From an uncultured delta proteobacterium (GTDB taxonomy: Bacteria > Desulfobacterota > Binatia > UBA9968), in the NCBI GenBank assembly GCA_963840855.1, contig CAWJBB010000024.1:1-64000 (forward strand): 64,000 bases of DNA, given 5' to 3'. A program made the position numbers and the translations under genes. Shown one piece after another: positions 6,473 to 36,010 of the stretch (its first letter is position 1; each line of letters begins with the position of its first letter). The notes beneath the pieces are model-generated. The model was not told the DNA's origin and did not search any database. It saw only the letters and a list, made by a program, of their open reading frames with translations.

Positions 6473-6495
6473 AGGGAGTTTAAGGGGACCGGCTA

Positions 6496-7058: not shown

Positions 7059-7287
7059 GTTGCCTCGTTTCGCCACCGCGTGCTTTTCCAGCACTTTATA
7101 CAGCATGTTGGTTTATCGTCGGCGTCAAAGAAAGGCAACCAACAAATCTTCAAGGCGCGAAAATGAGTCATGGGATTGAAGTCTATGAGGCTCTCGCGAT
7201 ACAGTCCCAGTCTGCGCTGCCGGAGTGCCAGGGGTCCGAGCCTGTTCGATATTTTGGGCCAATTGCCCATGTGCAGGAGACTTAACC

Positions 7288-15886: not shown

Positions 15887-16001
15887 GTTTTTATTCGTTC
15901 AAAACGTTCAAGTGGTTCAAATCGTTTTTGCTAAGTCAGATCATATTTCTAAGCACGCGCCTCGCATTACCTCGGGACTCAAGACCCGAAACTGTTTACC
16001 G

Positions 16002-17027
16002 TTACGGATTCAATGCGAGAAGTTTTTTTTGCGCGTCATCCATTTCTTTTTTCCAAATTCCCTTTTCCTGGTAAAATTTGATCGCCGCTGGATGATAAGG
16101 CATTGTCACGTCGGCGCCGGCGGCGCGATCGCGCGTCCATTCTTTGAAGCCCGGGTGCATTGGCGGGAGTTTGTCAGCGTTGTCCCAGATCGACTTCAAA
16201 ATGGCGGTCACCAACTGATCGGATGCCGCTTTGTGGGTGGCAAAGTAGATGTCGTAAGCGACCGTGCAGGTGTCTTCGACCACGGCGGCGGCCCCGCCGG
16301 ACTTGATGATTCTAGTATAGTAGCCAGGCACAGCCTGACGAACCCGCTTATCGCCTGCCGGCGAGCAGTCCAGCGAAAGGTGGCGCACCCCGATGGACGA
16401 ATCGGCTTCTCTGATCTTGGCCATGTTGAGCGCGCCGGCGGTAACTTCAGCGCGCCCTTGAACGAGCGCGTCGATGCCGTCATTGACCGCGGGTACGGGA
16501 ACGACAGTGACATCTTTCCAGGTGAGCCCAGCGCTCGCCAGCATGCCGAACATGTTAAACCAGACCGCCTGATGAGCTGGGTACTCGCCGGTTACCCGCT
16601 TCCCCTTGACGTCATGCACGGATTTCAAGGGGGAGTCCTTTTTTACCAGCAGACCGATGATCAACGGAGCGCCGCGCATTACCAGCCGGGTATTGGGTGA
16701 GTGTGGAAAATCGTTTTTTCCGGCGACCCTGAGCCTCTGGGGTCCCTGGTACGCCATCCCCATGTCCACGCCGTTTACGATGCCGAAGTCAAGTTCTCCG
16801 CTATCAAGAAGAGGGAGAAAGGTGCTGGTGCCGGTGTACGGCTGGACCGATGCCTGAACCGGCCCCGACTCGCTGGCGATCTTGGCAAGCCCGCTCGCCA
16901 GGGCGTAGAAAACCGTTCCCGGCGTGTTCGTCCCGATGACAGCCGACTTGGGCAACTGCGCCCATGTGGTCTGTATCAGGAAAGTCGTCAGCGAAAAAAT
17001 TATTCCTGCAACGGTTTTTAGCAACAT
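16002..17027 (-). CDS. TAXI family TRAP solute-binding subunit (permease-proximal copy)
   Basis: IGTNTPGTVFY, QPYTGTSTF, DVKGKRV, MPYHPAA; AAGGAGG RBS. Confidence 0.92.
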   Translation of the reverse strand: MLLKTVAGIIFSLTTFLIQTTWAQLPKSAVIGTNTPGTVFYALASGLAKIASESGPVQASVQPYTGTSTFLPLLDSGELDFGIVNGVDMGMAYQGPQRLRVAGKNDFPHSPNTRLVMRGAPLIIGLLVKKDSPLKSVHDVKGKRVTGEYPAHQAVWFNMFGMLASAGLTWKDVTVVPVPAVNDGIDALVQGRAEVTAGALNMAKIREADSSIGVRHLSLDCSPAGDKRVRQAVPGYYTRIIKSGGAAAVVEDTCTVAYDIYFATHKAASDQLVTAILKSIWDNADKLPPMHPGFKEWTRDRAAGADVTMPYHPAAIKFYQEKGIWKKEMDDAQKKLLALNP

Positions 17028-17048
17028 CAATTCCTCCTTGATTTGATA

Positions 17049-18095
17049 CTACGGGTTCAGAGCGAGCAATTTCTTCTGCGCTTCATCCATCTTGGCTGAC
17101 CAGAGCTTTTGCTCTTTATAAAACTCGATCGCCGCAGGGTGGTAGGGCATGGTTACATCAGGGGCAACCGCACGGTCCCGCGTCCACTCCTTGAAGATGG
17201 GGTGAACCGGGACAAGCTTCTCCAAATTGTCCCAGATCGCTTTGAGGGAGCCGCTGACAACTTGATCCACGGCCGCTTTGTGAGTCGAGAGATAAATATC
17301 ATAGGCGAGCACACAAGTATCCTCGATTATGGCCGCGGCGGTCCCAGCTTTCATAAGCCGCATGTAATATCCGGGAACGGCCCGGCCCAGGCGCTGCTCA
17401 CCCTGGGGCGAACAATCGCTGGAGAGGTGGCGCACCCCAACGGAGGTATCCGCCTCTCGGATCTTGGCAGAGTTGACAGCGTGCATAGTCACATCGGCCC
17501 GTCCCTGCACTAGAGCGTCTACGCCCTCGTTGGCGGCCGGCACTGGAACTACCTTAACATCGGACCAGGTCAGCCCGGCGCTGGCCAAATGGCCGAAGAG
17601 GTTATACCACACGGCGAGCTGAGCCGGATATTCTCCGGTGACCCGTTTGCCTTTGATGTCATGCACCGATTTGAGCGGCGAATCCTTGCGCACCAGGAGG
17701 CCTACCAACAGGGGCGCGCCGCGCATCACCAGGCGCGCGTTAGGCGTATGAGCAAATGGATTGCGGCCGCCGATTTTCAGCCGTTCCGGACCCTGATACG
17801 AGAGCGCCATGTCTACAGCGTTGTTGACGCCGAAGTCTATTTCTCCGTTGTTCAAAAGCGGCAGGAACGTGCTGGTGCCGGTGTACGGCTGAACAGTCAT
17901 TTGGAAGGATGTGCTTTCGCTGACGGCTTTGGAAAAGGCGCTCGCGACCGCATAGAAGACGGTACCCGCGGGGTTGGAGGCGATCGTCACAGCGCGGGTA
18001 GCTTGCTGCGCCAGTGCCGCGGCGCCACCGGTTAGAAGCATCATCACGACGTTCATTGCCAGAATGAGATTGCCTGTCGGTCTTCGCTTATGCAT
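17049..18095 (-). CDS. TAXI family TRAP solute-binding subunit
   Basis: ASNPAGTVFY, QPYTGTSTF, MPYHPAA; AAGGAG RBS before ATG 18095. Confidence 0.92.
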   Translation of the reverse strand: MHKRRPTGNLILAMNVVMMLLTGGAAALAQQATRAVTIASNPAGTVFYAVASAFSKAVSESTSFQMTVQPYTGTSTFLPLLNNGEIDFGVNNAVDMALSYQGPERLKIGGRNPFAHTPNARLVMRGAPLLVGLLVRKDSPLKSVHDIKGKRVTGEYPAQLAVWYNLFGHLASAGLTWSDVKVVPVPAANEGVDALVQGRADVTMHAVNSAKIREADTSVGVRHLSSDCSPQGEQRLGRAVPGYYMRLMKAGTAAAIIEDTCVLAYDIYLSTHKAAVDQVVSGSLKAIWDNLEKLVPVHPIFKEWTRDRAVAPDVTMPYHPAAIEFYKEQKLWSAKMDEAQKKLLALNP

Positions 18096-18156
18096 CGGTG
18101 AGCTCCTTATTCCCCATTTTTGTTCTCGAGCTTGAATCAACCCGGGACCCGGGATC

Positions 18157-18243
18157 GTCACTCTCGCCCTTCGACAAGGCTCAGGACAAGCTCCAGCGGG
18201 AGTCCAGACGTGGGTTACTGGATTCCGTTTGCACGGGAATGAC
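18157..18243. repeat. REP-like palindromic element (GTCA...GGAATGAC type) with nested CTTCGACAAGGCTCAG unit
   Basis: GTCACTCTCG...GGGAGTCCAG pairs with CTGGATTCC...CGGGAATGAC; related sequence at ~40698, 42035-42130 and ~62000. Confidence 0.6.
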
Positions 18244-18335
18244 GTGCGAAAGATGCAGCCATGCTCATCTCCACTCTCGCAGTGGGCTTTATAGCCAACA
18301 GATTTCTACCCCCCTTGCTTTGCAGGCCTAGCGCG

Positions 18336-19381
18336 TCAATTCAACGCTAGCAGTTTCTTTTGCACCTCGTCCATTTTCGTCGACCAGACTCCTTTTTCTC
18401 GATAGAACTGCTGCGCCGCCGGATGATAGGGAATTGTTACATCAGCCGAGGCCGACCGCTCCCGCGTCCAGTCGTTGAATTGCGGGTGCAAGGGAGGAAG
18501 CTTGGCGATATTGTCCCAAAGCGCTTTGAGCGTCGCCTGAACGACGTCGGCGGAAAGCGCTTTGTGACCGACGAAGTAAATGTCATAGGTGACTGCACAC
18601 AAGTGTCGCCGACGATGCCAGTAGAAAATCCGGATTTAAGCTATCGTCAGATAGTAACCGGGAACAGCTTTTCATACGCGCTCTTGACCCTGGGCGAACA
18701 GTCCAGCGAAACGTAGCGCACGCCGACGGTGGCATCCGCTTCTTTAACTTTTGCTGAGCCCACCGCGTGGTTGCCCACATCCGCACGGCCCTGAACCAGC
18801 GCGTCGATGCCGTCATTGACGGCGGGGACCGGCACGACTTTAACGTCGTCCCAAGTCAATCCTCCGCTGGCCGAGGCTGCCGAAGACGCTGTACCAGACC
18901 GCCAGATGGGGCCGGATACTCTCCGGTCACGCGCTTGCCTTTGACGTCGTAGACGGTCTTGATGGTCGACTCCTTTTTGGATACCAGGCTGGCCATCAAC
19001 GGTGATCCGCGCATCAGCAGGCGCGTGTTTGGGACATGGGGAAAAGGATTTCGGCCGCCGGCTTTCAATCGCTGACGGACCTTGATACGCGAGGCTCATG
19101 TCGACGGCGTTGACGACGCCAAAATCGATCTCCCCATTATCGAGAAGGGGCAAGAAGGTGCTCGTGCCGGTATAGGGTTGGACCACCGACTGCATGGCGC
19201 CGGCGCCGCTGATCGCTTTGGCGAGACCGCTCGCCACCGAGTAAAAAACGGTGCCGGCCGGATTGGTCCCCATCGTCGTAGAGCTGGGGAGTTTTTGCGC
19301 TGCAGCAGGACCAATACAGACGAAAACTATCACCACAGTGGCAGCAGTCCGCACAACGCTTCTACTTAGTCCCGTGCGCAT
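18336..19381 (-). CDS. TAXI family TRAP solute-binding subunit, several apparent frameshifts
   Basis: Full-length TAXI sequence is spread over ORFs 18647-19381, 18856-19068 and 18336-18602, and is colinear with the 19475-20518 paralog. Confidence 0.85.
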
Positions 19382-19474
19382 AACTCCTCCGTCGCTGTAT
19401 CGCAGTCCCAGGTCTAGCGTCCAGGGTCCCGCGTTAACCCCAGACTCAAGACACGAGACACCAAACCGTGTCCC

Positions 19475-20518
19475 TCACGGGTTCAAGGCCAACAACCGTT
19501 TTTGCGCCTCGTCCATTTTTGTGTTCCACAAATTTTTCTCTTTATAGAACTGTATCGCGGCGGGATGATAGGGAATGGTCACATCGGCGGATACCGCGCG
19601 TTCGCGCGTCCAATCCTGAAACTGCGCGTGCAAGGGGGGCAGCTTGGCGATGTTGTCCCAAACCGCTTTGAGCGTAGCTTGAACGACGTCGCCGGGCAGC
19701 GCTTTGTGACCGACGAGGTAAATGTCGTAGGTGAGGACGCAAGTGTCGCCGACTACGCCAGTGGATGAGCCTGACTTGACTGTGGTGACATAATAGCCGG
19801 GCACCGCCTTTCTTACGCGGGCCTCGCCCTGAGCTGAACAGTCCAGCGATAGGTAACGGACGCCAACGGAAGTATCAGCTTCCTTTATTTTGGCGGCGCC
19901 GATCGCATGGTTGCTGACATCGGCCCGTCCCTGCACCAACGCGTCGACGCCGTCATTGACGGCGGGGACGGGCACGACTTTAACATCGTCCCAGGTCATT
20001 CCCGCGCCCGCCAAGGCGGTGTAGATATGGTACCAGATGGCGATGTTAGCCGGATATTCACCCGTCACGCGCTTTCCCTTAACATCGTAAACGGTCTTGA
20101 TCGGGGAGTCCTTCTTGACTACCAGGCTAACCGACAAAGGCGAGCCGCGCATGATCAGTCTTGTATTCGGCACATGAGGCAGCGGATTTTTGCCGCCGAT
20201 CTTCAACTTTGCCGGCCCCTGGTAGGCAAGGTTCATTTCGACGGCGTTGATGATGCCAAAATCGATCTCCCCATTATCGAGCAGGGGCAAAAAAGTGCTG
20301 GTGCCGGTGTAGGGCTGAATCACCGCCTGAAACGGCGCGGCGCCGCTTATGACACTGGCCAAGCCGCCGCCGACGGCATAGAAAACAGTCCCCGCCGGAT
20401 TGGTGCCGACCGTTACAGACTTGGTCGGCTGCTGGGCGTGGGTGGCGACCGAAAACAAATTTAGCGCAAAAAAAACCACCACCACAGGTACAGATAATTG
20501 CTTCCAGCGGCTGTCCAT
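19475..20518 (-). CDS. TAXI family TRAP solute-binding subunit (first gene of the operon)
   Basis: VGTNPAGTVFY, IPYHPAA; AAGGAGG RBS. Confidence 0.92.
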   Translation of the reverse strand: MDSRWKQLSVPVVVVFFALNLFSVATHAQQPTKSVTVGTNPAGTVFYAVGGGLASVISGAAPFQAVIQPYTGTSTFLPLLDNGEIDFGIINAVEMNLAYQGPAKLKIGGKNPLPHVPNTRLIMRGSPLSVSLVVKKDSPIKTVYDVKGKRVTGEYPANIAIWYHIYTALAGAGMTWDDVKVVPVPAVNDGVDALVQGRADVSNHAIGAAKIKEADTSVGVRYLSLDCSAQGEARVRKAVPGYYVTTVKSGSSTGVVGDTCVLTYDIYLVGHKALPGDVVQATLKAVWDNIAKLPPLHAQFQDWTRERAVSADVTIPYHPAAIQFYKEKNLWNTKMDEAQKRLLALNP

Positions 20519-21546: not shown

Positions 21547-22699
21547 CTACCGTCCCCAAAGCTCCTTGGTCGCCAGCCGCGCGCCTTCGGCCATCGCTTC
21601 GAACTTCGCCCAGCAGATCTGCGCGCTGCCGACTCGCGGGCCGAGGCCGCAGTCGGTGCCGGCCATGACATTTTCGCGCCCGACGATTTTCCCGTAGCGC
21701 ACCAGCCGGTCGGCGATGGCTTGCGGATGTTCGACGATATCCGTTGCATGGCCGACCACGCCGGGCACCAACACCTTGGCGGCGGGAAGTTTCACTTCCT
21801 CCCACACGCGCCACTCATGCTCGTGGCGCGGATTGGCCGCCTCAATGGAGATCGTGTTGGCCTTCACTTTTAAGAATCAGATCGATGATGTCGCGCAGCG
21901 GAATGTCGTACTTGTGCGGGCCGTGATAGCTGCCCCAGCAGGTGTGAAAACGGACGCGATCGGCGGGAATATCTCTCAGGCCGTGGTTCAGCGCGTCGAC
22001 GCGGAGCTCGGCGTATTTGCGGTACTCCGGCACGCTCATCCGCGACATGAACTGCCAGCCGTCGGGGAGGTCCGGATCGTCGATTTGCAATAAGAAACCG
22101 GCATCGACGATGGCTTTGTACTCTTCGCGCATGGCGTCGGCGATGGCCATCAAATAGGCCTCGTCGCTGGGGTAATAATCGTTCTTCATCCAGTGTTCGA
22201 TGGTGCCGGGAGCGATGGCGGGAAGAAAGGCTTCTTCATATTTCTGGCCCTGGAGCCCTACTTTGAAATCCTCAATCTCGGCTGTTAGCGAGGCCTGGCC
22301 GATGTACTTGAGCGGCGCGTTGCAGAACACCCGCCTGAGATTGTCGCCCCGGTGCGAAGTGCGCGCATTGAAATAGTCGGCGAACTCAACGACATCGCGT
22401 TCATAGATCGTCGAGGGGCGATCCTCCGCCCGCACGTCTCTTTCAATGAAACCGCTCAGGCGCTCGCGGGCGTAGCGCGAGAAGTTCGATTTGCCCACTT
22501 CGCCGTCGTTGATGATGTCGATGCCGCAGGCGATCTGTTTTCGCACCGCTTCCGATACGGCGTCGCGCACGCGCTTCTCGAAGGCTTCTCTCTCCACCGG
22601 CTTTCCAGCAGCCTGCGCGGCGTGCATTTCTTTCAAATCAGGCGGCTGCGGCAACGCGCCGGCATGGGTCGTCAAAATACGATCGGTGCTGTACTTCAT
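21547..22699 (-). CDS. Cobalamin-independent methionine synthase II family protein (frameshift near 21868)
   Basis: MKYSTDRILTTHAGALP, DGE, H-T-C-W, then EAANPRHEHEW...GTDCGLG in the next frame. Confidence 0.88.
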
Positions 22700-22782
22700 T
22701 CGATTATCCTTTCGTAAAAACTTTGGAACATTTGGAACGAATTGGAACCACATTAGCAACCGTTCCAACAGTGGCACGCTAA

Positions 22783-23775
22783 TTATTTGAGCGAGTCGGC
22801 AACTTTTTGCGCGAAGGTGAAATCGAAGACTCGCTCCGGCGGCGCCAGTTCCTTGGGTTTGACACGCTGAGCCGCCACCGCGATCATTTCGCGTTGAAGC
22901 TTTTCATCCACGGCGCCTGACTGCAGATAGTACTGTAGCGCCGCTTCGTAAACGCGCTCGGCGTGCCGCTCACGTTCCTTGCCCAGGTCGAGATAAGGTC
23001 CTTTGATGAACTCTGTGGCGTACTTCCTGTCGTTGCGAATTAAGCGTAACGCGCGCTGTGTTGCACGGATCGTTTTGGTGACCAGCTCGGGCCGCTCCGA
23101 AATCGTTGCCTTGGTGGTCGTCAGGCCGCCCTGCACGGCGCGGTAAACGTCCGCGCCCGCGGCCAGTTTTCGAAACCCCTCGTCTTGGGCGAGAAATGTC
23201 TGCGGGATCTGGAGCATAGTAGCGTCGATGGTCCCGGCCTTCAAAGCGATGTAGAGCACATCGCTGGTGCCGAGCGGAAGAAACGTGACTTGCTCCGGCG
23301 GAATTTTATTGGCAATGAAGATTTGGCGCGCGAGAATTTCGGCCAGAGCGCCGAACGCGGTGATGCCGATCTTTTTGCCGCGCATTTGTTGGACGTTCGT
23401 GATGCTCGGCAGGGCGATCAGATCGAAGGATGGTTTGTCGGTTAAAGCGAAGACGACCCTGACATCTACGCCACTGACCGCAGCCGCGACGGCGGTCCCT
23501 GTGGCCGTGCCGAGATCGATGCCGCCGGCCAACATGGCCGGAATCGTTTGAGCGGCTTTAATGAAAATGAGCTCGGGCTCCAGGCCCTCTTCGCGGAACA
23601 AACCTCGGTCGCGGGCGATGATAAAAGGCATATCCAGGATGCTGCGCGAAACGTAGCCGATGCGCACGGCGGCGAGCTTGGCGGATTTTTCAGCGGCCCA
23701 TAAGCCTCCGGTCCGGAATGCAAGCACTTGGAAAAGGATAAATGAGAGCAATGCCATTCGAGGCATGATCTTCAT
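22783..23775 (-). CDS. ABC transporter substrate-binding protein, NMT1/SsuA-like
   Basis: Signal peptide; GLFREEGL, RGKKIGI, ALKAGTIDA, VFDFTF. Confidence 0.88.
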   Translation of the reverse strand: MKIMPRMALLSFILFQVLAFRTGGLWAAEKSAKLAAVRIGYVSRSILDMPFIIARDRGLFREEGLEPELIFIKAAQTIPAMLAGGIDLGTATGTAVAAAVSGVDVRVVFALTDKPSFDLIALPSITNVQQMRGKKIGITAFGALAEILARQIFIANKIPPEQVTFLPLGTSDVLYIALKAGTIDATMLQIPQTFLAQDEGFRKLAAGADVYRAVQGGLTTTKATISERPELVTKTIRATQRALRLIRNDRKYATEFIKGPYLDLGKERERHAERVYEAALQYYLQSGAVDEKLQREMIAVAAQRVKPKELAPPERVFDFTFAQKVADSLK

Positions 23776-23863: not shown

Positions 23864-24532
23864 TTATTTATATGTGTCGTAGATGCCATCGAACTTGGCC
23901 AGCTTGAAGCGCACCATGTTCTTCGCCGCCACGCGCACCAGCTCTTTCTCTCTCTCGCTGTTGGCGTTTCTCGCGATGGTTTCAGCCGCCATCGCGGTAT
24001 GCTCTTTGTCGACTTTGCCGTGTACGATGAAAAACGTTCTGGCCCGGCTATCGAGGCCATAGTGTTTTTCGAGCGCCGTGTCGAATTCTTCGGAATAGCG
24101 GCACACCATGGTTTCGTTGACGAGCGCGCCGGCGCGGGTCTCGGCGGGCATGCCGACGAACATGCCGCGTATGATCGCCGCAGTGTGGGCCACACACTCG
24201 AAAATCATGATGCCGTTTTTGAAGTCCTCGTCATTCAACCCGATGGCTTCGCCGAAACGTTTCATCAACCCAGGGTGTGACTGCTCTTCGGTGAAGAGTT
24301 CGGCGAACTGCTCGTACATCGGTTGGTTGTTGGCATTTCTAACCATCAGGAAGGCGAGTCCTTTGTTGATCACATGGTTCGAAAGATAGTGCTGCACGGC
24401 AAATCCTTGGAGCCGCCGCTTCGAGAGCTCCCCGGCTCTGAGCTCAGTGAAGAAGCGGCTGTTCATGAGCTGCTCGACTCCCGGGTTCACAATCTCGCGC
24501 ATCAGATCTTCGATAAAAGCTTGGTTATCCAT
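23864..24532 (-). CDS. Heme-oxygenase-like diiron redox enzyme (CADD/PqqC/TenA fold)
   Basis: EEQSH and FFIVHGKVDKEH (HxxxDxxH) metal-ligand motifs; 222 aa, helical. Confidence 0.82.
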   Translation of the reverse strand: MDNQAFIEDLMREIVNPGVEQLMNSRFFTELRAGELSKRRLQGFAVQHYLSNHVINKGLAFLMVRNANNQPMYEQFAELFTEEQSHPGLMKRFGEAIGLNDEDFKNGIMIFECVAHTAAIIRGMFVGMPAETRAGALVNETMVCRYSEEFDTALEKHYGLDSRARTFFIVHGKVDKEHTAMAAETIARNANSEREKELVRVAAKNMVRFKLAKFDGIYDTYK

Positions 24533-24765: not shown

Positions 24766-25608
24766 ATGCCAACGGCGCATGTCGGCGATATCGAAATTTA
24801 TTATGAAGAACAAGGAAGCGGCGAGCCAGTATTGCTCGCGCCGGCTTCTTGGTGGCCGTCCGACACGTGGAATGTCGGCGTCGTGGCGTTTCTCTCGAAG
24901 CAGTTTAAAACTATCATCTTCGATTGCCGGGGAACCGGGCGGAGCAGCAAGCCTGAGAGCGGCTATACCGTGCCTCAATTCGCTCGAGATTGCATCGGGT
25001 TATTGGCCGAGCTTGGCATCTCGCGCTGCCATGCGGTGGGTTTCGCGCTGGGCGGACAAATCGTTCAGGCGATGGCCATCGAGCGGCCGGATCTAGTAGC
25101 AACTCTCACCATCGCCGCCTCGGGGTCGGGCGCCAGAACGCTGAGCGGCGGCCCGAGGATTGTGTCGCCTGATACGGACCGCGAAATTCGCGATATGGGG
25201 TTTGAGCGTTACATCCGCGCTTACATAGAAAACGACACCATGGCGTTTAACCCGAATTTTTATCGCGACCATTCCGACGTTGTCAGCGCTCTGGCCAACG
25301 CCGTGTGGTCGGGACAAAGTACGGCTGAAATGTTTCGCCGCCACGAGGATGCGCGTCTCACTTGGGACACGCTGGCGCAGGCGGCCGCGGTGAAAGTGCC
25401 GGCGCTGATTCTCTGCGGCGCCGACGACGATGTGAGCCGGCGCGGCAGCACGCCGGTGGATACCGCAAAGCGTTTGGCGCAATTGACGCCCGGCGCGGAA
25501 CTATTTTTGATTCCGAATGTGAAGCATATGACGTTTTGGGATGGGACCGGTGGGCTTACCGCGCTGGAAGATTTCTTGGTCCGCCACCCGATTGAAGCGC
25601 GTCGATGA
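24766..25608 (+). CDS. Alpha/beta-fold hydrolase homolog with Ala at the nucleophile position
   Basis: IYYEEQGSGEPV, FDCRGTGRS, elbow HAVGFALGG, PALILCGADD, KHMTFW. Confidence 0.88.
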   Translation: MPTAHVGDIEIYYEEQGSGEPVLLAPASWWPSDTWNVGVVAFLSKQFKTIIFDCRGTGRSSKPESGYTVPQFARDCIGLLAELGISRCHAVGFALGGQIVQAMAIERPDLVATLTIAASGSGARTLSGGPRIVSPDTDREIRDMGFERYIRAYIENDTMAFNPNFYRDHSDVVSALANAVWSGQSTAEMFRRHEDARLTWDTLAQAAAVKVPALILCGADDDVSRRGSTPVDTAKRLAQLTPGAELFLIPNVKHMTFWDGTGGLTALEDFLVRHPIEARR

Positions 25609-26656
25609 TTTTCATGTTTAATTGCGTGAGGAGAGTTGGAACCGTCGCGCGGCACAACGGCTGTTGGTTGAGCCGATGTGTCGCGTCCAGTGTAATTTGT
25701 GGTTGTCTCACTATGGCGTTGCCGACGGCCTCGGTCGAAGCCCAAAGCAAAAAAGTACGTGTGGCGCTGCCGGGCTATACCATCGCCGCGCTTTCCTTTC
25801 TTGCCGCCAAGATGAACAACTATTATGTCGCCGAGGGTTTAGACGTCGAGCTGATCGCGATGCGGGCGCCGACCGCTAATCTGGCAGTACTGAGCGGCAG
25901 CGTGGAGTTCTCCGGCGTTCCACTCGCCGGTCTCACTACAGCGCTGCGTGGCGGCGGGGTAAAATTATTGTTCTGCCAGTTCGACAAACCACAGCATGCC
26001 TTGTTCGCCAAACCGGAATTTCAAAACGTCAAAGCTCTGCGCGGTAAAAAACTCGCAGTCGCGGGTATCGGCACCATCGACGATATTTTGCTGCGTGAAG
26101 TGCTTGGCGCCAACGGGCTCGATCCCGCGCGTGACGTGACGATTCTCGCGATGGGGGCGGCAGATACCCGATTTAGCGCTCTGGTCAGCGGCGCCATCGA
26201 GGCCTCGGTGCTCATTGCCCCGACCTCTTTTTACGCCAAGGATCAGGGATTCAGGGAATTGGCTGCGTTTCAAGATTTAGGTTTTGTTTTGCCCAGCGGT
26301 GGCATCGTTGCCCGCGACGAAATTTTAAAAGCCGATCCTCTCACCGCGGAACGATTCGTCCGGGCCACGATTATGGGCTTTTTGTTCATGCGTGACAATC
26401 GTCCGGGAACGCTCAAGGTCATGTCGCGCATGCTGAGAATCGATGAACCGACCGCGGCCAAGCTTTACGATTCATCCCGGCCACCCTGACCGCCGACGGT
26501 ACCGTTACAGGGGACACCGAAAAAAGGATGACCGGATTCATACTCAAGATCGCCGGCGTGAAAGATGCTCCACCCGCCGACAAGCTCTATGATTTTTCGC
26601 TTGTGAGGAAAGCGCATCTCGCGCTACAAGCGAAAGGCTGGCAACCGGGCCCATAA
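25605..26656 (+). CDS. ABC transporter substrate-binding protein, NMT1/SsuA-like (frameshifts near the 3' end)
   Basis: AEGLDVELI, LRGKKLAV, GLDPARDV; continues in another frame to LYDFSLVRKA...WQPGP* (TAA 26654-26656). Confidence 0.82.
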
Positions 26657-26704
26657 TTGAATGAGGGTTACGGGAGTCGTGCAATCCAAGATGCGAGGTG
26701 TGAT

Positions 26705-27544
26705 ATGCCCACCGCAAAGATCAGCGACATCGACATTTACTATGAGGAGCAAGGCCGAGGCGAGCCGGTGTTGCTTGCGCCGCCGTCCTGGTGGCCGTGC
26801 GATACCTGGAAGGTTGGCGTCGTGCCGTTTCTTTCCAAACGTTACCGGACGATCATATTCGATTGCCGGGGCACGGGTTTCAGCGGCAAGCCGGATCACG
26901 GCTACACCATCGAACAATTCGCCAAGGATTGCGCGGGGCTGTTGGAGCATCTGAAAGTCGCGCGCTGTCACGCCGTGGGTTTCGCATTGGGTGGGCAGAT
27001 CGTGCAAGCGCTGGCGATTGAGCGTCCCGACCTGGTGGCCACGCTGACCATCGCGGCGACCGGGGCAGGCGTGAAAACGACGAGCGGCGCGCCGCGTCAA
27101 ACGATCAATACCGACGAAGACGAAATTCGCGCCCATGGGTTCGAGCGATTCATCCGCGGCCATGTCGAAAACACCCACATGGCGTTCAACGAACGGTTTT
27201 TTCATGCGCATCCTGAAGCGGTCCAGGCGTTATCCGACGCTTTATGGCAGCGGCAAACCAGTCCGGAACAACATCGATATCATTATGATGCCCGCCGCAC
27301 CTGGGACACCCTCGGCAACGCGCCGAAGGTGAAAGTGCCGACTCTGATACTCTGCGGCGCGGCCGATGACGTCAATCGCGGCGGCAGCACGCCGGCCGGA
27401 ACGGCGCGCAAGCTTGGCGAATTAGTGCCTGGGTGCGAGCTTGCGCTGGTGCCAAACGTCAAGCATATGACTTTCTGGGACGGCGACGGAGCGCTGATCG
27501 CATTGCAGGAGTATCTGGAGCGCCATCCTATTCATCAGAATTAA
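26705..27544 (+). CDS. Alpha/beta-fold hydrolase homolog with Ala at the nucleophile position (paralog of 24766)
   Basis: Same motifs, including HAVGFALGG and NVKHMTFWDG; GAGGTG RBS before ATG 26705. Confidence 0.88.
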   Translation: MPTAKISDIDIYYEEQGRGEPVLLAPPSWWPCDTWKVGVVPFLSKRYRTIIFDCRGTGFSGKPDHGYTIEQFAKDCAGLLEHLKVARCHAVGFALGGQIVQALAIERPDLVATLTIAATGAGVKTTSGAPRQTINTDEDEIRAHGFERFIRGHVENTHMAFNERFFHAHPEAVQALSDALWQRQTSPEQHRYHYDARRTWDTLGNAPKVKVPTLILCGAADDVNRGGSTPAGTARKLGELVPGCELALVPNVKHMTFWDGDGALIALQEYLERHPIHQN

Positions 27545-27596: not shown

Positions 27597-28659
27597 ATGT
27601 TGAGAGAAATGTGCGCAGGACGGAAGTTTTTGACCGGGCCGTTGATTGCAACTGCCTCTTGATCGTAATGATGTGCGGTGCGGCATACGCGCAAGAGAAA
27701 GGCAAACGGGCAACGACCTGTGGCCCAGCTCTACGCGACGCCAGGAAAGAAGGGGTCGTGGTCATTTGGGGCACGGATGCGTCATCTATCAGAGGGCGCA
27801 GGCGGTACTGACAAACAATACAGGGCATCAAGATCGAGCACTTAGAGAGTATTCCAGAACCTCTGGTGCAGAGAATCATCGCCGAAAGTCAGGCGGCAAG
27901 ACGGCGCCGTGGATATTATTCAGTCCGGATCGCTGCGCGCGTTGCGCCCTTTGATAGACCGCGACATGCTATCCGACTACCCGGGATGGGAAAAGGATTT
28001 TGGTCTTGACGCGGTGTATGACGGCCAACGTTTTGTCGGCGCCTATAATCTCACTTTGCCGATCGCTTACAACACCAAAATGGTGAGCGCGCAGGAGCGC
28101 GAAGAGCTGGGAGGATCTCGCCGATACAAAATGGAAGGGAAGAAAGCTGATTATCGAGGCTCGATTAGTTCCTTTCGCCATGCTCGGCACCGAGTGGGGC
28201 AAGGGAAAGGAGACTGAGTTAGTCAAGAAAGTACTTGCGCAGCAGCGGATAATCGCTCAGGGCGGCACCACGGTTGCCAAAGCTCTGGCCGGAGGACAAG
28301 TCCATATCGCCGTTGGCACCTACGCCTACAAGATTGAAGGGTTGAAAAAACAAGGGGCGCCGGTGGACTGGGTCGCCGCCTCCACTTTGCCGGTGCTAAA
28401 TACGGCGCTGGGAGTGATTAAAACCGCGCCGCATCCCAATGCCGCGCGTTTTTTTGCCGGTTGGTTGGGTGGGGCAGAGGGGCAAAAGATCAGGTATTCG
28501 ACTTCGGCCAGGCCATCGAGGTGGGCAAAAACGCGATTGGCGCCGTCGCCGAAAGAATCAAAACCACTCAGCCGACGATCATATTGGAACCGAAAAGACT
28601 TTGCGACAATTCTCGAGATTCAGCGCGAGCTGGGCAAGCTGCTCGGCGCTTTGCGCTAA
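27597..28659 (+). CDS. Extracellular solute-binding protein (Fe3+/thiamine ABC type), multiple frameshifts
   Basis: Fragments ARKEGVVVIW, IAYNTKMV, GAPVDWV, APHPNAARFF in different frames; GAGGAG RBS. Confidence 0.75.
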
Positions 28660-28811
28660 GGATCTTTGGCGATGACAGCGGGATTTTTCTGCGCGCTGTA
28701 AGGGGCGCAGCATGCTGCGCCCCTACTCCGCGCCCTTCGCCCAGCTCTTACGTCAATGAATGTAACACCATCCACTCTCGCCAAAAATGTTCATGTCCGA
28801 CCTGGTCGTCG

Positions 28812-30546
28812 ATGCGCAAGCTATCGGTTCGGACCTTTGCCTTTGGCTCGACTATCGCCGTGGTCAGCTATCTCGTCCTGGTACCGCTGTTCATGTTGCT
28901 CTATGCCAGCGTCAAGAGCACGGCAGATAAATTGCCGTTCGAGTCTACGGTCACGACGATCTCCAATTACACCGACGTTCTGACTAGACCCTCGACACTG
29001 CCGATTTTTTTCAACACGTTTTTCTTTACCGCCGGGTCGCTGGCCGTGGGGTTGCCGCTGGCGATCTTCATGGCGTGGCTTTTGGAACGCACCGCCATGC
29101 CGGCGCGCCGGTGGATTGCCGCTCTCATTCTCGTGCCGATGACGATTCCGTCGCTGCTATCGGCGATCGCTTGGATTCAATTGCTCGATCCGCGCATCGG
29201 TCTGGTCAACGTGGTGTTGCGAAGCGTCCTCGGTTTGTCGGGCGACACCGGGCCCTTTGATATTTATTCACTCTACGGCATGTGCTTCGTTCAAGGCTTA
29301 AGGCTGGTGCCGTCGGCTTTTCTGATGATCGCGGCCTCGTTTCGCGCCATGGACGAGTCCTTGGAAGAACAGAGCGCGATGGCGGGACGCGGCGTGGCTC
29401 AAACGACGCTGCGCATTACGCTGCCGATCATGCGTCCGGCGCTGCTCGCCGCGCTGATCTATTACATTATCGTCGTCATCGAATCCTTCGACATCCCCGG
29501 ACTGCTCGGCTTTACCGCGCGCATTCGCGTGTTGAGCACGGCGATTTACTGGGCGACCCACTCGGAAGTCGGCTTGCCCGACTACGGCTTGGCCTCGGCT
29601 TTGGGGGCGATGGTCTTGGCCGTGGCGCTGCTGCTCATGTGGATCTATCAGCGCTTGACGGCGCATCAGGAAAGATTCGCCACGATCACGGGCAAGGGAT
29701 ACCGGCCCCGGCAAATCAATCTCGGCGCCTGGACGGCCACGGCCACCGCGCTCTGCGTATTCTACTTGGCGATGGCGTGGTACTGCCGTTCCTGATGCTG
29801 ATCTGGACCAGCGTGCAGCCGTTCTACGCGATCCCATCGGCGGAATCCCTCGCGCGGGCGAGCTTCGAGGCGTACTTGAAGATTTGGCAAGACAGCAGTG
29901 TGATGCGGGCGCTGTGGAACACGACAATATTGGCGCTGGTCACCGCCGGGGCGACGATTTTTCTCGCCGTGCTGGTGAGCTGGTTCGTGGTCCGGCGCGG
30001 CAAAACGGCGGACGGGCTTTCGCATTATCTCGCCACAGTGTCATTCTTGCGCAGTGCGTGCCGAGCATCGTTATCGGTTTAGCCTTTATCTTCGTTTATG
30101 TCCGCTTTCCGATCCCGATTTACGGCACGCTGTGGATCATCGCGCTGGCGATGACGACCCGCTATCTTGCCTATAGCTCGCGCGCCATGACCTCCGCTCT
30201 CATGCAGGTGCACGGCGAATTGGAAGAAGCGTCGCAAATGGCCCGCGCACCATGGGCGCGAACGCTCCGCAGAGTCACGGTGCCGCTTTTGGCGCCGGCA
30301 ATGATCAACGTGTTTTTTTGGGTGGCGGTGCACGCGATGCAGGAGCTATCGATGGCGCTGATGCTGTACAATCCGGAGACCGTCGTCGTGTCGACGATGA
30401 TCTGGAGCATGTGGCAAAACGGCCGAACCGCGGATGCGGCGGTTTTGGGCGTAATCTTGATTCTGCTGTCCGCAATCTTGCTCCTCGGCGGCCAGGCAGT
30501 TTCGTATTTGCGGCGGAGCTCCGATTCTTGGAAGGCCCCCGAATGA
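28812..30546 (+). CDS. ABC transporter permease (FbpB-like, two domains), frameshifted
   Basis: MDESLEEQSAMAG, ITLPIMRPA, ATITGKGYRP, LMQVHGELEEASQ; split near 29775 and 30050. Confidence 0.88.
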
Positions 30547-31575
30547 TCAGCGTAAGAGATTTGGAAAAGTCATTTGCCGGCGCGCGGGGGAAGTGCGGGC
30601 TCTGCGCGGCGTTCCTTCGAGGTGGGTAAGGGAGAACTGTTCACACTGCTCGGTCCGAGCGGTTGCGGCAAGACGACGACGCTGCGCTGCATTGCCGGAT
30701 TGGAACAACCGCGGTCGGGAGAAATCCTGTCGATGATCTGCCCGGTGTTCAACGCCGCCGAGGGTACGTTCATTGCGCCGGAGCGGCGCAATATCGGCAT
30801 GGTCTTTCAATCCTACGCCATCTGGCCGCACATGACGGTGTTTCAGAACGTCGCCTATCCGCTGGCGAGCGATTTCAGCCGCGCGCAGATCGCCGAACGG
30901 GTGGAACAAATCCTCGGGCGCCTGGGGCTCGGCAGTCTGGCCGATCGGCTCGCGCCTAATTTGAGCGGTGGACAGCAACAGCGAGTCGCGTTGGCGCGGG
31001 CGCTGGTGGCTCAACCTGAGGTGCTGCTGTTGGATGAACCGCTCAGCAACCTCGACGCCAAGCTGCGCGAACAGATGCGCTTCGAGCTCAAAGCTTTGCA
31101 GGAGTCCTTCGGTATAACCACGGTCTATGTCACTCACGACCAGGAAGAGGCGATGGCGCTCTCTGACCGGATCGCTCTGATGCACGACGGCGCATTGCTG
31201 GAAGCCGGGACGCCCGCGGATCTCTATCTTCGTCCCGCCCATAGAATTACCGCCGACTTTCTTGGCACGTCCAACTTCGTTCCCAGCACGGTTGAGAACG
31301 TCGGCAGCCTGGCAGGGGCGGAAGTTTTGCTGGATTCACCGTTGGGTAGATTCATCGCGCGGCGCAGCGTCGAATGGCAGCCGGGATCGCTGTCGGAACT
31401 TTTTTTCCGGCCCGAGAACGTCGACTTGTTGGATGACTCCGCTGCCAATGGATTAAATCGAGGCAGCGGAGTCGTGGAACGGGCGACGTTTCTCGGTAAT
31501 GCCGCCGACCTCGTGCTGCGCTGCGGCGACATCGCCGTGCGCGTGCGCGCGCATCGAGGTCGGAGCCGTCCGTAG
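30543..31575 (+). CDS. ABC transporter ATP-binding protein (FbpC/PotA-like), frameshifted ends
   Basis: GPSGCGKTT, VFQSYAIWPH, LSGGQQQRVALAR, LLLDEP, YVTHDQ; ATGA overlap with the permease; true 3' end uncertain. Confidence 0.9.
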
Positions 31576-31773: not shown

Positions 31774-32856
31774 GTGAATGCAACTCCATGAACGCGACAG
31801 AGGATTGAGGAAGATAGTCTCGGATGGCGTCTCTATCACAACATGCTCGTCACGCGAAGCTTCGAAGATGCACTGATCCGCTGGGAGCATGAAGGGAAGA
31901 TTGCCGCGCAAACGTTTCCGAGCAAGGGCCAGGAAGCCATCGCCATCGGCTGCTGCCTGGCGCTGGAGCAAGGCGACGATGTCATCCCGTCTTTTCGCAC
32001 CCGCGGCGCGATGGTCGGCATGGGCGTGAGCATCGCTGAGCAAATTCGCGAGTTCATTCACAGCCCGCTAGCGGCAGGCGACTCGCGCGATGCGCCGCAT
32101 CATGCATCATGGCCTGACCGCGGTGTCATGCCAGGCTCGACGATGATCGGCGGCCATCTCGCCATGGCTGCGGGCATCGCCTTGGCGATGCAATGCGAAA
32201 AGCAAAACCAAGTCGGCGTCGCTTTCTTTGGCGACGGGACGCTCGGTTCCGGCGACCTGCACGAGACCATGCACATCGCCGGCGCGTGGGGGCTGCCATT
32301 AATCTTGGTCTGCGAGAACAACGGCTGGGAAATGGCTACTCCCTGGCACAAAGTGCGCAAGCAACGCTCGCTGATTCCCTATGCTGAGCCTTTCGGATTC
32401 GCCACGCGGAGTGTCGATGGCAACGATGTCTGGGATGTGTATCACTCAGCGCGCTGGGCGCGTGAGACGGCATTGGCAGGACAAGCGGTGTTTCTTGATT
32501 GTCTGACGTTCCGGGCGGGCCTCTACAGCTCGCATTTCGGCGAAGTCCGTCCGGGAGTCGAGCAGGAACTGTCCGAATGGGAAACGCGTGATCCGCTAAA
32601 ACGCATGGCCGATTGGCTGATTGGGAATGGTTTAGCTTCGGCGGACGAGTTGGAGGAACTGCAGCGTGAAGAAGAACGGCGCATTGAAGAAACTTTTGAG
32701 CAAGTGCTCTCTGAGGTGAGGTGCTGCCAGTTTCTCGGCAGGTGGCTTTTTCAGAAGCAGACTTTCGTGAATCGTGTTCGTGATTCGTGTTCGCACGAGC
32801 ACGAGAAACGGAGCATGTCGGTTTCCGCTTTCGCGAGAGGCGCAATATATCGATGA
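31774..32856 (+). CDS. ThDP-dependent dehydrogenase E1 alpha-like subunit (5' frameshift; atypical motifs)
   Basis: GQEA, FFGDG...CENN ThDP-binding motif, VDGND, RDPL; AAGGAG RBS at 31765. Confidence 0.85.
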
Positions 32857-33836
32857 ATGTTATAGACAGCGTTAATCTAAAGAGATGGTCAGCACTGAGT
32901 TATCGGGACGCCGTCGGCAAGGCGCTGCAAGATTCCATGCGCCATGAGCCGCGCTTGATTTTGATAGGTCAGAATCTCGCGGCCCACGCCTTGAAACCAT
33001 TGGCGCTGACTTACGGCGAAGCTCGAGTGCGCGACACCAGCATCAGCGAAAGCGCGATGGTCGGCATGGCCGTCGGCGCGGCCATGAAAGGAATGAAAGT
33101 CGTCGTTATGATCGCCTATGCCGATATTGCTTCGGTCTGTCACATGGCGATCGTGCAAAGCGCAGCGAAGCTTCACTACTTGACCAACGGCCGTTTGAAT
33201 TGCCCGGTCATCATTCGCCTGCCAATAGCGCGCTTTCGCGGGCATGGACCGGAAGGCAATGAAGTCGGAGCGTCATGGTTTTACAACGTGCCGGACTTGA
33301 ACATCGCGCTGCCGGGCTCGGCGAACGAGGCGTATTGGAGCTTTCGCGAGGCGCTCACGCGGCCGACGCCGACATTATTCTTCGAGGACCGTTCGATCCA
33401 TCCTCGATCGGGTGAAGTTGCCGACAATAATCCCAAAGGTAAAGCCCAGATCACCCGCTCGGGCGAGCGCTTGACGATCGTCGCAGCCGGACGCGCGGCG
33501 GCGCTGGCTGAAGATGCGGCTGATGAATTGGCGAAGCAAGGATACAGTGGCGCGGTAGAGGTCGTCAGCCTGGGATTCATCAAGCCGCTGGACAAACAAA
33601 CGGTTCTAAAATCCGCGAGTAAGACCGGCAGAGTGCTAATCGTACAGGACGAGCCGGAATGGGGCGGCTACGCGCCGGTGGTGCGTTGTTTGTTGGATGA
33701 GCTGGCGCCGGGGAAGCTCGTAAAAATGCCGCGTATTATCGGCGGGGCCGACCAATATTTACCCTATTGGGACGAGAAGCCTTTCCTACCGTCTCTTCAA
33801 AGCGTTATGGCCGCCGGCAAGGAGATAATTGGATAG
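32853..33836 (+). CDS. ThDP-dependent dehydrogenase E1 beta-like subunit
   Basis: RVRDTSISESAMVG, IKPLD, KTGRVLIV. Confidence 0.87.
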   Translation: MNVIDSVNLKRWSALSYRDAVGKALQDSMRHEPRLILIGQNLAAHALKPLALTYGEARVRDTSISESAMVGMAVGAAMKGMKVVVMIAYADIASVCHMAIVQSAAKLHYLTNGRLNCPVIIRLPIARFRGHGPEGNEVGASWFYNVPDLNIALPGSANEAYWSFREALTRPTPTLFFEDRSIHPRSGEVADNNPKGKAQITRSGERLTIVAAGRAAALAEDAADELAKQGYSGAVEVVSLGFIKPLDKQTVLKSASKTGRVLIVQDEPEWGGYAPVVRCLLDELAPGKLVKMPRIIGGADQYLPYWDEKPFLPSLQSVMAAGKEIIG

Positions 33837-33913: not shown

Positions 33914-34954
33914 ATGCACGAAGAGTTGTCAGAGATCTTCGAGCGCTTCGCGAGAGAAGAATTTCATAACTCTTCGCCGCTCTATGAACAACTTTCCAGG
34001 GCAATCGCGAAAGATCCTGAGCTGCTTTCTCTTGCGGCGCGGTGCCGGAAGGGAGAGCGGATACCTAATTTGCTTTTCGCTGCGGTCCATTACCTGCTGC
34101 TAAAAGGTTTCTCTCACCCTGTTTCTCGATTCTACAAAAGTCTTGGTGGGTCTTTTGACGGCCGTGAGGACCCCTACCCTGAGTTTCAGTCGTTTTGCTC
34201 GCAGCATGTTGAGAGCATTCGTCAGCTAATCGCTGTTCGAATGGTCCAGACTAACGAAGTGAGCCGTTGTGCCGGACTGATGCCTGCTTTTGCTACCGCG
34301 TCAAAAAAAGTTCCAGATGAATCGCTGTATCTGGTGGACATCGGGGCAAGCGCGGGCCTTAACCTGTTCTGGGATCACTACGGCTACAAATACGGGGACT
34401 TGATCGAATGCGGCGATAGAGAGTCGCCGGTTCAGATCAACTGTGTTCTCAAAGGGACAGAGGTTCCGTCGCTTCCAGCGTCATTTCCTCGAGTCGCGGG
34501 GCGCGTGGGGCTGGACTTGCATCCTCTCGACGTGCGAGGCTCGGACGACGCGCTTTGGTTAAGGGCTTTGATTTGGCCGGAGCATGAGGCGCGGGCTGAT
34601 CTCTTGCGCAAGGCAATCGAGGTTGTGCGGCAACAACCGCTGAAACTGTTAGCGGGGAATGGCGTTGACTTGCTGAGGGGTATATTGAGCACCGTTCCCG
34701 CCGACTCTGTCCTATGCATCGTCCGGATCTTTACCCAGCTTTCGCAAGAGGACCGCGATCGGCTTTCGGCATTAATCTTAGAATACAGTACGAAACGAGA
34801 TGTCATCACAATTTCACTTCGACGCCATGGCGGAGATGATTCAGAAATTCGCCTGACTTCGTTTATCAAAGGCAATAGAACCGACGAGGGTCTAGCCTAC
34901 TTGCAGAACCACGGCGAATGGATCGAGTGGTTGGATGAGGCGCATAGCGGTTGA
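33914..34954 (+). CDS. DUF2332 domain-containing protein
   Basis: SPLY, LLFAAVHYLL, VQTNEVSRC, DIGASAGLNL, GLDLHPLD, WLRALIWPE, HGEWIEW. Confidence 0.88.
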   Translation: MHEELSEIFERFAREEFHNSSPLYEQLSRAIAKDPELLSLAARCRKGERIPNLLFAAVHYLLLKGFSHPVSRFYKSLGGSFDGREDPYPEFQSFCSQHVESIRQLIAVRMVQTNEVSRCAGLMPAFATASKKVPDESLYLVDIGASAGLNLFWDHYGYKYGDLIECGDRESPVQINCVLKGTEVPSLPASFPRVAGRVGLDLHPLDVRGSDDALWLRALIWPEHEARADLLRKAIEVVRQQPLKLLAGNGVDLLRGILSTVPADSVLCIVRIFTQLSQEDRDRLSALILEYSTKRDVITISLRRHGGDDSEIRLTSFIKGNRTDEGLAYLQNHGEWIEWLDEAHSG

Positions 34955-34993
34955 GTCGCAGCGAAAATTTCCGACGGAGGTTCAAAGGTCAAT

Positions 34994-36010
34994 ATGAGGT
35001 TAAGCATCTTTTCAATTGCCGCCCTGTCAATGGTCTGTGTCGCCCCGGCTCGCGCGCAGATCAGTAATTCCGATTTGCTTGCCCAGGCCAAAAAAGAAGG
35101 ACGGGTCGTCTGGTACACAACGGTGTCGATTCCGGAAAGCCAGGAATTTGCCGCGCTGTTCAAGCGTCAATTTCCTTCGATCAACGTGGATATTATTCGC
35201 ACCGGTTCCAGCGCGTTGGTGAATCGCCTCATCAGCGAGCATAATGCGAAAAAGTATCTCGCGGACGTGCTTCAAGGATTTTCCAGTCGCGGCGGATACG
35301 GCGCGCTCAAGCAAAGGGGAATTCTCGGCCGGTACGAATCGCCAGAGTATAAATATCTTCCGCCAGACCTGAGGGACCCGGCAGGTTACTGGGGCTCCCA
35401 GTACCAGAACACTTTTGTGCTGGCTTACAACACACGCATGGTCAAACCGCCTGACGTTCCAAAAACGTACGACGATCTGCTCAAGCCGATGTGGAAGGGG
35501 AAAAAGATTCTTAACGACACGGAAAACCACGAGTGGTTCGACGGGCTCTTGCACTATTGGGGCAAGGAAAAAGGCATTGCTTATTTTCGCAAGCTCGCGC
35601 AGCAGGAGCAAGTCTTTCAGCGCGGCGCCCGCGGCCGCGTTCAACTCGTGGCGGCGGGAGAATTTCCGTTGACGATCGGCTACGGACCCCATGTGCAGAG
35701 TTTCGTCAACAAAGGGGCGCCCGTGGATTGGATTCCATTAGAGCCCGTGGTCACCATTATCAATACCGTGAGTATTGCCGACAAAGCTCCACACCCGGCC
35801 GCAGCGCGCCTGTTCATCGATTTTCTCTTTTCAAGGCCGGCGCAGCTTAAGTTGCGGGAGATGAGCCGTATCCCAGCGCGCGAGGACGTCGATGCTGATC
35901 CGCCGCGGCTTTTCAAAGGATTTAAAAAAATAGCTCAGGATCTAGAGAACGATACCATGAAGGAGTCTGCCGAATTGTATCAGCAAATCTTTGGTTTGAG
36001 CGCGCAATAA
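34994..36010 (+). CDS. Extracellular solute-binding protein (Fe3+/thiamine ABC type)
   Basis: AKKEGRVVWY, AYNTRMV, DLLKPMWKGK, APHPAAARLFIDF. Confidence 0.9.
   Translation: MRLSIFSIAALSMVCVAPARAQISNSDLLAQAKKEGRVVWYTTVSIPESQEFAALFKRQFPSINVDIIRTGSSALVNRLISEHNAKKYLADVLQGFSSRGGYGALKQRGILGRYESPEYKYLPPDLRDPAGYWGSQYQNTFVLAYNTRMVKPPDVPKTYDDLLKPMWKGKKILNDTENHEWFDGLLHYWGKEKGIAYFRKLAQQEQVFQRGARGRVQLVAAGEFPLTIGYGPHVQSFVNKGAPVDWIPLEPVVTIINTVSIADKAPHPAAARLFIDFLFSRPAQLKLREMSRIPAREDVDADPPRLFKGFKKIAQDLENDTMKESAELYQQIFGLSAQ

Follow-up and report, generated by a model that had tools for sequence, protein, structure and literature searches.

Within the 64,000-nucleotide stretch of DNA analysed here, which we call the window (contig CAWJBB010000024.1 of an uncultured delta proteobacterium, class Binatia, assembly GCA_963840855.1), two forward-strand genes encode proteins that are predicted to fold as alpha/beta-hydrolases (ABH) and that carry alanine where a nucleophilic serine would be expected. 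We refer to them as ABH1 and ABH2 (Table 1). The open reading frames were listed at 24766..25608 and 26657..27544. The second opens with TTG; its start is most likely the ATG at 26705, because the resulting terminus MPTAKISD... parallels MPTAHVGD... of ABH1 and GAGGTG precedes both ATGs. Both genes are full length, and they and the neighbouring haem-oxygenase-like (HDO) gene are intact in the window assembly.

Alanine at the nucleophile elbow of ABH1 and ABH2

ABH1 and ABH2 align without gaps over 277 residues at 65% identity, and both pass the Pfam gathering cut-offs for Abhydrolase_1 (65.4 and 68.2 bits against 25.8) and Abhydrolase_6 (59.3 and 54.5 bits against 26.3), which bears out an earlier note, made from the sequence alone, that described them as paralogous alpha/beta-hydrolases. 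The AlphaFold model of ABH1, built from a 129-row alignment, averages 95.4 in the predicted local distance difference test and has the customary core under a helical cap. Foldseek returned at least 500 matches to this model at E<=0.001. They include ordinary esterases, perhydrolases, PcaD and an N-acyl homoserine lactone (AHL) lactonase, and the esterase Est1 (8v16/6eb3; template-modelling (TM) score 0.83, ~30% identity) ranks first. From sequence and model, both proteins are thus assigned to the ABH-fold superfamily.

Their best family-model matches are PcaD and RutD, both far under the cut-offs. The top NCBIfam model, for the PcaD enol-lactonase (TIGR02427), gave 93.9 and 111.9 bits against an equivalog cut-off of 255.85, and therefore no curated family claims either protein. 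Records of homologues carry the names 'enol-lactonase' and 'pimeloyl-ACP methyl ester carboxylesterase'; as labels for a covalent serine mechanism, these automatic names cannot be right.

The elbow reads C-H-A-V-G-F-A-L-G-G in both proteins. An HMMER alignment set Ala94 opposite the serine of G-V-S-M-G-G in Est1 (PDB 6eb3/8v16), and the model places residue 94 in a strand-turn-helix, between strand 88-93 and helix 95-106, so the replacement of the elbow serine by alanine that the earlier note had proposed holds for both paralogues, with the two different codons exactly where it had put them. Compared with a canonical Ser-His-Asp hydrolase, both proteins lack a nucleophile (Ser, Cys or Asp) at G-x-Nu-x-G and keep the acid past strand 7 (Asp221, in GADDD in ABH1 and GAADD in ABH2) and the histidine past the last core strand (His254, in NVKHMTFW). 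Neither the alignments nor the model placed any other nucleophile at the elbow, a possibility that the note had itself raised against its reading.

The third canonical element, an HG-type oxyanion loop after strand 3, is also missing. Here the earlier note was right that the loop had been replaced and needs a minor adjustment as to position: in the Est1 alignment it is P26-A27 (P26-P27 in ABH2), not A25-P26, that occupies the H-G positions, Ser28 is the next residue, and the whole element reads P26-A27/P27-S28-W-W-P. A MAFFT alignment with the dioxygenase HOD, at 17% identity, instead sets W29 on W36 of HOD, a residue whose main-chain amide lines the oxyanion site according to passages of PMC10548524. 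Because these two alignments disagree, the exact oxyanion residue differs with the alignment used. The idea that Pro27 of ABH2 abolishes the oxyanion NH was withdrawn, since in the Est1 alignment that place belongs to residue 28 and not to residue 27.

Table 1 Positions of the ABH genes, their active-site residues and the neighbouring genes in the window
Feature	Position	Strand	Description
ABH1	24766..25608	+	alpha/beta-hydrolase-fold, 280 aa, Ala elbow; open reading frame, Pfam, AlphaFold (AF2), Foldseek
ABH2	26705..27544	+	ABH1 paralogue, 279 aa; reading frame opens TTG 26657, likely start ATG 26705
Ala94 of ABH1	25045..25047	+	GCG, nucleophile-elbow position; aligned with Ser of Est1
Ala94 of ABH2	26984..26986	+	GCA
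Asp221 of ABH1	25426..25428	+	GAC, triad acid
Asp221 of ABH2	27365..27367	+	GAT
His254 of ABH1	25525..25527	+	CAT, triad base
His254 of ABH2	27464..27466	+	CAT
P-A-S-W-W-P loop of ABH1	24841..24858	+	replaces HG/oxyanion loop
MetE-like (Meth_synt_2)	21550..22777	-	frame shift near 21870; family models, tblastn
NMT1/SsuA-like solute-binding protein	22783..23775	-	family-model matches
Haem-oxygenase-like (HDO/CADD-like)	23864..24532	-	divergent from ABH1; Pfam Haem_oxygenas_2, 57 bits
NMT1/SsuA-like solute-binding protein	25605..26656	+	between the ABH genes, 4-nt overlap with ABH1 stop; Pfam NMT1
Fbp/PhnS-class solute-binding protein	27659..28656	+	several frames in window assembly
Fused double ATP-binding cassette (ABC) permease	28803..30546	+	592 aa in L017; two frame shifts in window
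ABC ATPase with TOBE domain	30574..31575	+	PotA/PhnT2/FbpC-like
Pyruvate dehydrogenase (PDH)-like thiamine-diphosphate E1 alpha and beta	31843..33836	+	
DUF2332 gene and second Fbp/PhnS-class solute-binding protein gene	33914..36010	+	

Conservation and origin of the remodelled site

A first homologue search found 1,316 proteins at E<=1e-5, of which the best 120, listed at 80-99% identity, all read G-F-A-L-G-G. The listed homologues were combined with translated open reading frames of 71 related genomic loci and the top 150 cluster representatives, and removal of identical sequences and of rows with <220 aligned positions left 283 rows. We define the core clade as the 186 non-redundant rows with at least 55% identity to ABH1. 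Ala94, Asp221, His254 and Pro26 are each present in 186/186 of these and W29-W30 in 185; Ser, Asp or Cys at the elbow was found in none, so that the survey of homologues called for by the note went against the outcome it had named as refuting, close homologues mostly with one of these residues. The 31 rows at 33-55% identity divide into 8 with Ala, 1 with Thr and 22 with Ser at the elbow, and below 33% identity the residue is Ser in 66/66. Outside the core clade and its distant relatives with the WWP loop, Ser stands there in 88 of 89 rows.

The alanine is written with all four codons in the 71 genomic copies (GCC 30, GCG 23, GCT 13, GCA 5), and none of these copies has serine at the elbow, although every Ala codon is one base from a Ser codon. 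Ratios of nonsynonymous to synonymous change (dN/dS, Nei-Gojobori) between the window's genes and orthologues with proteins 76-95% identical are 0.07-0.19, with a median of 0.195 over 798 pairs (dS 0.2 to 1.5). The conserved residue, its varied codons and the low ratios together indicate that the genes are functional and that the alanine is under selection or, at the least, is tolerated where constraint is strong.

These data also dispose of the explanation that the alanine is a sequencing error or that the genes are decaying into pseudogenes. Single-base gaps do occur in neighbouring genes of this assembly, and four genes are split over two or three frames relative to their orthologues in loci L014 and L017: the MetE-like, NMT1-type and Fbp/PhnS-class genes and the fused permease. 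One base is missing from a short C/G run at each of 26480, 29775 and 30049; in the NMT1-type gene between the ABH genes, tblastn passes from frame 1 to frame 3 at ~26480, where a base of a C-run is missing relative to L014. Against this, both ABH genes are full length, and their alanine recurs in 186/186 relatives across many assemblies, with four codons and low dN/dS. We regard an artefact as refuted and give it next to no weight; the earlier note had likewise excluded a sequencing error.

Parts of both ABH genes were matched, at 93-100% identity, by short contigs in four RNA libraries (three studies), and one of the contigs has the Ala codon GCC instead of GCG. Such libraries can contain DNA, so these contigs, whose shortness prevents them from showing transcription or its level, give only a weak hint that the genes are expressed.

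The origin of the alanine was followed in a quick maximum-likelihood tree (LG+G4, SH-aLRT support only, midpoint root for drawing) of 119 rows, made up of 22 core representatives, to which 189 rows had been collapsed at 80% identity, and the 97 remaining rows. One branch with SH-aLRT 95 unites the core clade with eight distant x-W-W-P sequences (7 Ala, 1 Thr) from metagenomes and from metagenome-assembled genomes (MAGs) labelled Chloroflexota and Alphaproteobacteria; at ~35% identity, these eight have D or E at position 221 and H at position 254. Sister to this branch is a group of 27 rows with a serine elbow, G-H-S-M-G-G-R, joined to it with support 99. The tree fits a single old change from Ser to Ala. 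One branch, purifying selection and a retained His-Asp pair, taken together, show that a distinct nucleophile-free ABH subfamily is real.

Three sets of sequences in the pool stand apart. P0137, a member of the WWP clade, has the Thr elbow, G-F-T-I-G. P0192 has a G-F-A-L-G-G elbow without the WWP loop and groups among Ser sequences elsewhere in the tree, which marks it as an independent loss of Ser. The distant matches P0124, P0136, P0154, P0155 and P0171, of 526-1027 aa, contain two to five tandem ABH domains, several of them with non-Ser elbows, such as G-N-K-D-G and G-W-A-D-S in P0155.

When the Ala clade is set against its Ser sister group, it differs by the changes H93->F, S94->A, H230->P and G255->M and by the gain of W29, W30, W181, R225 and T229, and W35, H193, R197, D221 and H254 are common to both. 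The surroundings of the elbow have therefore become more hydrophobic, with the His/Arg pair of the cap and the catalytic pair kept. The sister clade has no solved relative more specific than Est1 and Est816, and in the window's own genome its members lie in varied catabolic islands.

Three cysteines, Cys54, Cys88 and Cys217 (24925-27, 25027-29 and 25414-16 in ABH1), hardly vary in the core clade, where they are found in 180, 183 and 185 of 186 rows. In the distant Ala-clade sequences, Cys gives way to His, Gln or Asn at position 54 and is found in 1/8 at position 88 and in 2/8 at position 217.

The proteins could still be hydrolases, acting on an activated ester, thioester or lactone by another nucleophile (Ser28, Cys54 or Cys217), by a group of the substrate or by water activated by His-Asp. 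The near-fixation of Ser28 (183/186) and of the cysteines in the core clade speaks for this, as do the top family models, PcaD and RutD, for all their distance from the cut-offs. Ser or Thr at position 28 is, however, equally present in the Ser-bearing sister group, and Ser28 is for that reason not a replacement nucleophile; the three cysteines are not retained in the distant Ala clade; Cys88, by the strand assignments of the model, would open strand 88-93, a long way from the elbow; and the changes next to the elbow are all towards more hydrophobic residues. We consider hydrolysis by such a route improbable.

Distribution and gene neighbourhood

The genome to which the window belongs (7.1 Mb in 93 contigs, 94% complete, 8% contamination) contains no Ala copies besides ABH1 and ABH2, and several Ser paralogues. 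In a sample of the class, a core-clade gene was found at E<=1e-60 in 30 of 300 other genomes, all within two families of one order (11/25 genomes of family f1 and 19/21 of f99); the other 18 families, with 254 genomes, yielded none, and neither did 300 other genomes in a phylum-wide sample at the same threshold. The class sample was the informative one of the two; both counts come from samples and leave absence unproven. Most public records that contain close copies are titled as Candidatus Binatia or 'Deltaproteobacteria' MAGs, and a few bear other phylum labels.

Gene context was compared across 59 distinct core-clade loci, three overlapping ones having been merged. In 26 of them the order is that of the window: genes for a MetE-like protein, an NMT1-type binding protein and an HDO/CADD-like protein, all on the minus strand, are followed by a divergent ABH gene, sometimes with a binding protein and a second ABH gene behind it, then by the Fbp/PhnS-class binding protein, the fused double permease, the TOBE-type ATPase and the PDH-like E1 alpha and beta, and finally by DUF2332 and another binding protein, in some loci with a third ABH gene. 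A second order, seen in 18 loci, runs from an SLT_2 transglycosylase gene to ABH and then to an ATPase of the same class 25 nucleotides downstream or, alternatively, to a convergent pair of permease and binding-protein genes. These 18 loci appear to represent family f99, the contig positions matching those of the matches in genus g210. The remaining 15 loci, ten of them <14 kb, have neither order. An ABC importer of the Fbp/Phn/Pot type thus stands beside ABH in 36 of the 59 loci, in two gene orders.

The binding proteins of the cluster come nearest to solved binders of Fe3+, sugar phosphate (AfuA) and pyridoxal phosphate and to aminoethylphosphonate models, with low scores throughout. The HDO neighbour has ExxH and HxxxDxxH motifs that align with those of 4-aminobenzoate synthase (CADD) 9pj4, so the diiron ligand motifs are apparently intact; a paralogue 50% identical to it lies elsewhere in the same genome (G000:C68:113332-113994). 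Of the 300 other class genomes, 41 contain an HDO relative with at least 47% identity; 14 of these genomes lack ABH, and the relatives were found only in families f1, f99 and f100. The proposal that ABH acts as an E2-like partner of E1, in the manner of AcoC, was dropped as a general explanation: model NF011457 matched ABH proteins only under its cut-off, in control genomes as in the window's own genome, and E1 was found in only 4 of the 30 other ABH-bearing class genomes.

Some other features of these loci were noted. The DUF2332 protein (33914-34954, +; Pfam 331 bits) has no NCBIfam match or solved relative by sequence, and its gene follows the E1 genes in the window and in locus L048. At 13934-20518 on the minus strand of the window, a fused permease of the DctM type, from tripartite ATP-independent periplasmic (TRAP) transporters, precedes four consecutive NMT1_3 (TAXI-like) genes for binding proteins, a short one included, and this run is also kept upstream of the cluster in related loci. 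In L026 (62-1009; L026/L037 ~6300-7900), the second-order ABH gene follows the SLT_2 lytic transglycosylase gene, and in L026 a gene of the MbnB/TglH/ChrH type, for modification of ribosomally synthesized and post-translationally modified peptides (RiPPs), and an ABC exporter gene lie a few kilobases upstream. A scan for promoters and terminators found nothing useful on the forward strand before the ABH genes; its three promoter-like sites were all on the minus strand, with 1.5 expected.

The proteins might instead be non-catalytic ligand-binding proteins or pseudoenzymes that receive or chaperone the compound taken up, or that regulate the ABC ATPase or neighbouring enzymes as their partners, with His-Asp kept for structure or ligand contact. 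The loss of the nucleophile and the replacement of the HG loop are in keeping with such a role, and so are the co-orientation of ABH with the ATPase gene 25 nucleotides away in the second gene order and the strong conservation of pocket and cap residues (I141, I150, W181, H193, R197, R225), as expected for specific binding. What tells against it is the invariance of Asp221 and His254 in 186/186 core sequences, extended by D/E and H in 8/8 distant WWP members; in addition, no longer or fused ABH forms, with partner domains, were found at E<=1e-20, which is weak evidence. We think this rather unlikely, though it is the chief rival of a catalytic role and deserves to be weighed beside it.

A candidate general base and comparable known proteins

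We tentatively prefer to see ABH1 and ABH2 as selected nucleophile-free enzymes whose His-Asp pair works as general base, with an imported small molecule as substrate. Ala94 excludes an acyl-enzyme mechanism, and the two proteins are probably not ordinary ester hydrolases. In an old clade, Ser would have been replaced once by Ala, with the His-Asp pair and a conserved pocket kept; the products would be cytoplasmic enzymes in which no acyl-enzyme intermediate is possible. His254-Asp221 could then serve as general base on a small, probably anionic, molecule brought in from outside. Abstraction of a proton might lead to oxygenation, decarboxylation, elimination or tautomerization, or the pair might activate water directly, and the enzymes would resemble the Ala-bearing dioxygenase AqdC or the decarboxylase MKS1. 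Points that fit this proposal are that His254 and Asp221 do not vary across the clade, that constraint is strong, that the site has been remodelled and is rich in tryptophan, and that the genes recur beside an uptake system.

Several observations weigh against a general-base enzyme coupled to uptake. Among solved structures, those that come nearest belong to ordinary Ser esterases, lactonases and perhydrolases, share ~30% identity or less and point to no special reaction, and the relation of ABH1 to HOD is limited to the shared fold (17% identity). Histidine is often kept in non-catalytic ABH members as well, according to parts of the ESTHER paper (PMC3531081), a point that also favours a pseudoenzyme. 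In the window itself the importer genes are frame-shifted, through either assembly errors or decay. Nor is the linkage of ABH to HDO and E1 general: the HDO paralogues of f99 lie tens of kilobases from ABH, and E1 alpha orthologues occur in 4/300 other class genomes, that is, in 4/30 of those bearing ABH, all four with ABH. From this distribution we take the general link to be that of ABH with the importer, HDO, the MetE-like protein and E1 being additions in the window's family.

A bolder version of the general-base proposal, and in our judgement a doubtful one, is that the clade comprises a new cofactor-free oxygenase, decarboxylase or C-C/C-P lyase that works with His-Asp only in a tryptophan-lined pocket, on an organophosphate, phosphonate or similar anion delivered by the Fbp/Phn-type importer. 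If true, such a family would give soil Binatia a catabolic route not known before. More broadly, the genetic link to an uptake system could reveal the substrate of ABH, and any function found would add to the sparse knowledge of the metabolism of these hosts, which are uncultured soil bacteria.

Among known proteins, the closest solved structures are Est1 (6eb3, 8v16) and the AHL lactonase Est816 (5egn), with a sequence E value of 1e-29, ~30% identity and a TM score of 0.83. They share with ABH the layout of core and cap and the positions of acid and histidine, and differ in having G-x-S-M-G-G with Ser where ABH has G-F-A-L-G-G and the P-A/P-S-W-W-P loop. PcaD (TIGR02427; PDB 2xua), the top NCBIfam match and at the same level of ABH subfamily, is set apart by the score of ABH under its cut-off and by the absence from ABH of both the Ser and a pca gene context.

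The best mechanistic analogues are HOD, QDO and AqdC. According to PMC10548524, the His-Asp pair is all that HOD requires, with kcat kept in the S101A variant, and AqdC has a natural Ala at the elbow, which supports the earlier note's statement that the fold allows chemistry independent of a nucleophile. The same source gives D126 as the acid of HOD, earlier in the chain, and in our alignment HOD has no Asp opposite D221 of ABH1. BLASTP aligned the two at 24% identity over 99 residues (E 3e-4); HOD was among neither the best 60 PDB sequence matches listed nor the Foldseek matches listed for ABH1, and no quinolone-pathway genes lie near the ABH genes. Membership of ABH1 in the HOD/QDO family was rejected on the low MAFFT identity and the different place of the acid in the sequence.

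Tomato MKS1 likewise combines a natural alanine elbow (Ala87, in GHALG) with activity, as a 3-ketoacid decarboxylase (PMC3531081 and PMC11644291, in part). Compared by description, it belongs to the plant methylesterase (MES)/hydroxynitrile-lyase subfamily and has Ala-His-Asn by a recent substitution, whereas the ABH clade is bacterial and has Ala-His-Asp by an old one. The non-catalytic ABH-fold proteins treated in the same parts of PMC3531081, among them neuroligins, CCG1-interacting factor B and others in ESTHER, have also lost the nucleophile and kept the fold; they are mostly eukaryotic proteins of adhesion or regulation, unlike the ABH clade with its invariant acid and histidine and its bacterial uptake and catabolic clusters.

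Since AqdC and MKS1 are already described as natural Ala-elbow enzymes, the ABH clade is a new deep bacterial variant of a known theme and not a new principle. The earlier note's suggestion of a new His-Asp enzyme or ligand-binding subfamily accordingly stands as to a distinct nucleophile-free subfamily and is tempered as to its novelty. Nucleophile-free enzymes of the ABH fold are rare examples of a hydrolase scaffold turned to other chemistry. In the papers cited above, the cases found, AqdC and MKS1, are single enzymes or shallow lineages; the ABH clade is deep, with hundreds of members, keeps Ala and His-Asp across divergence to ~35% identity, and can be compared with a clear sister group that bears Ser.

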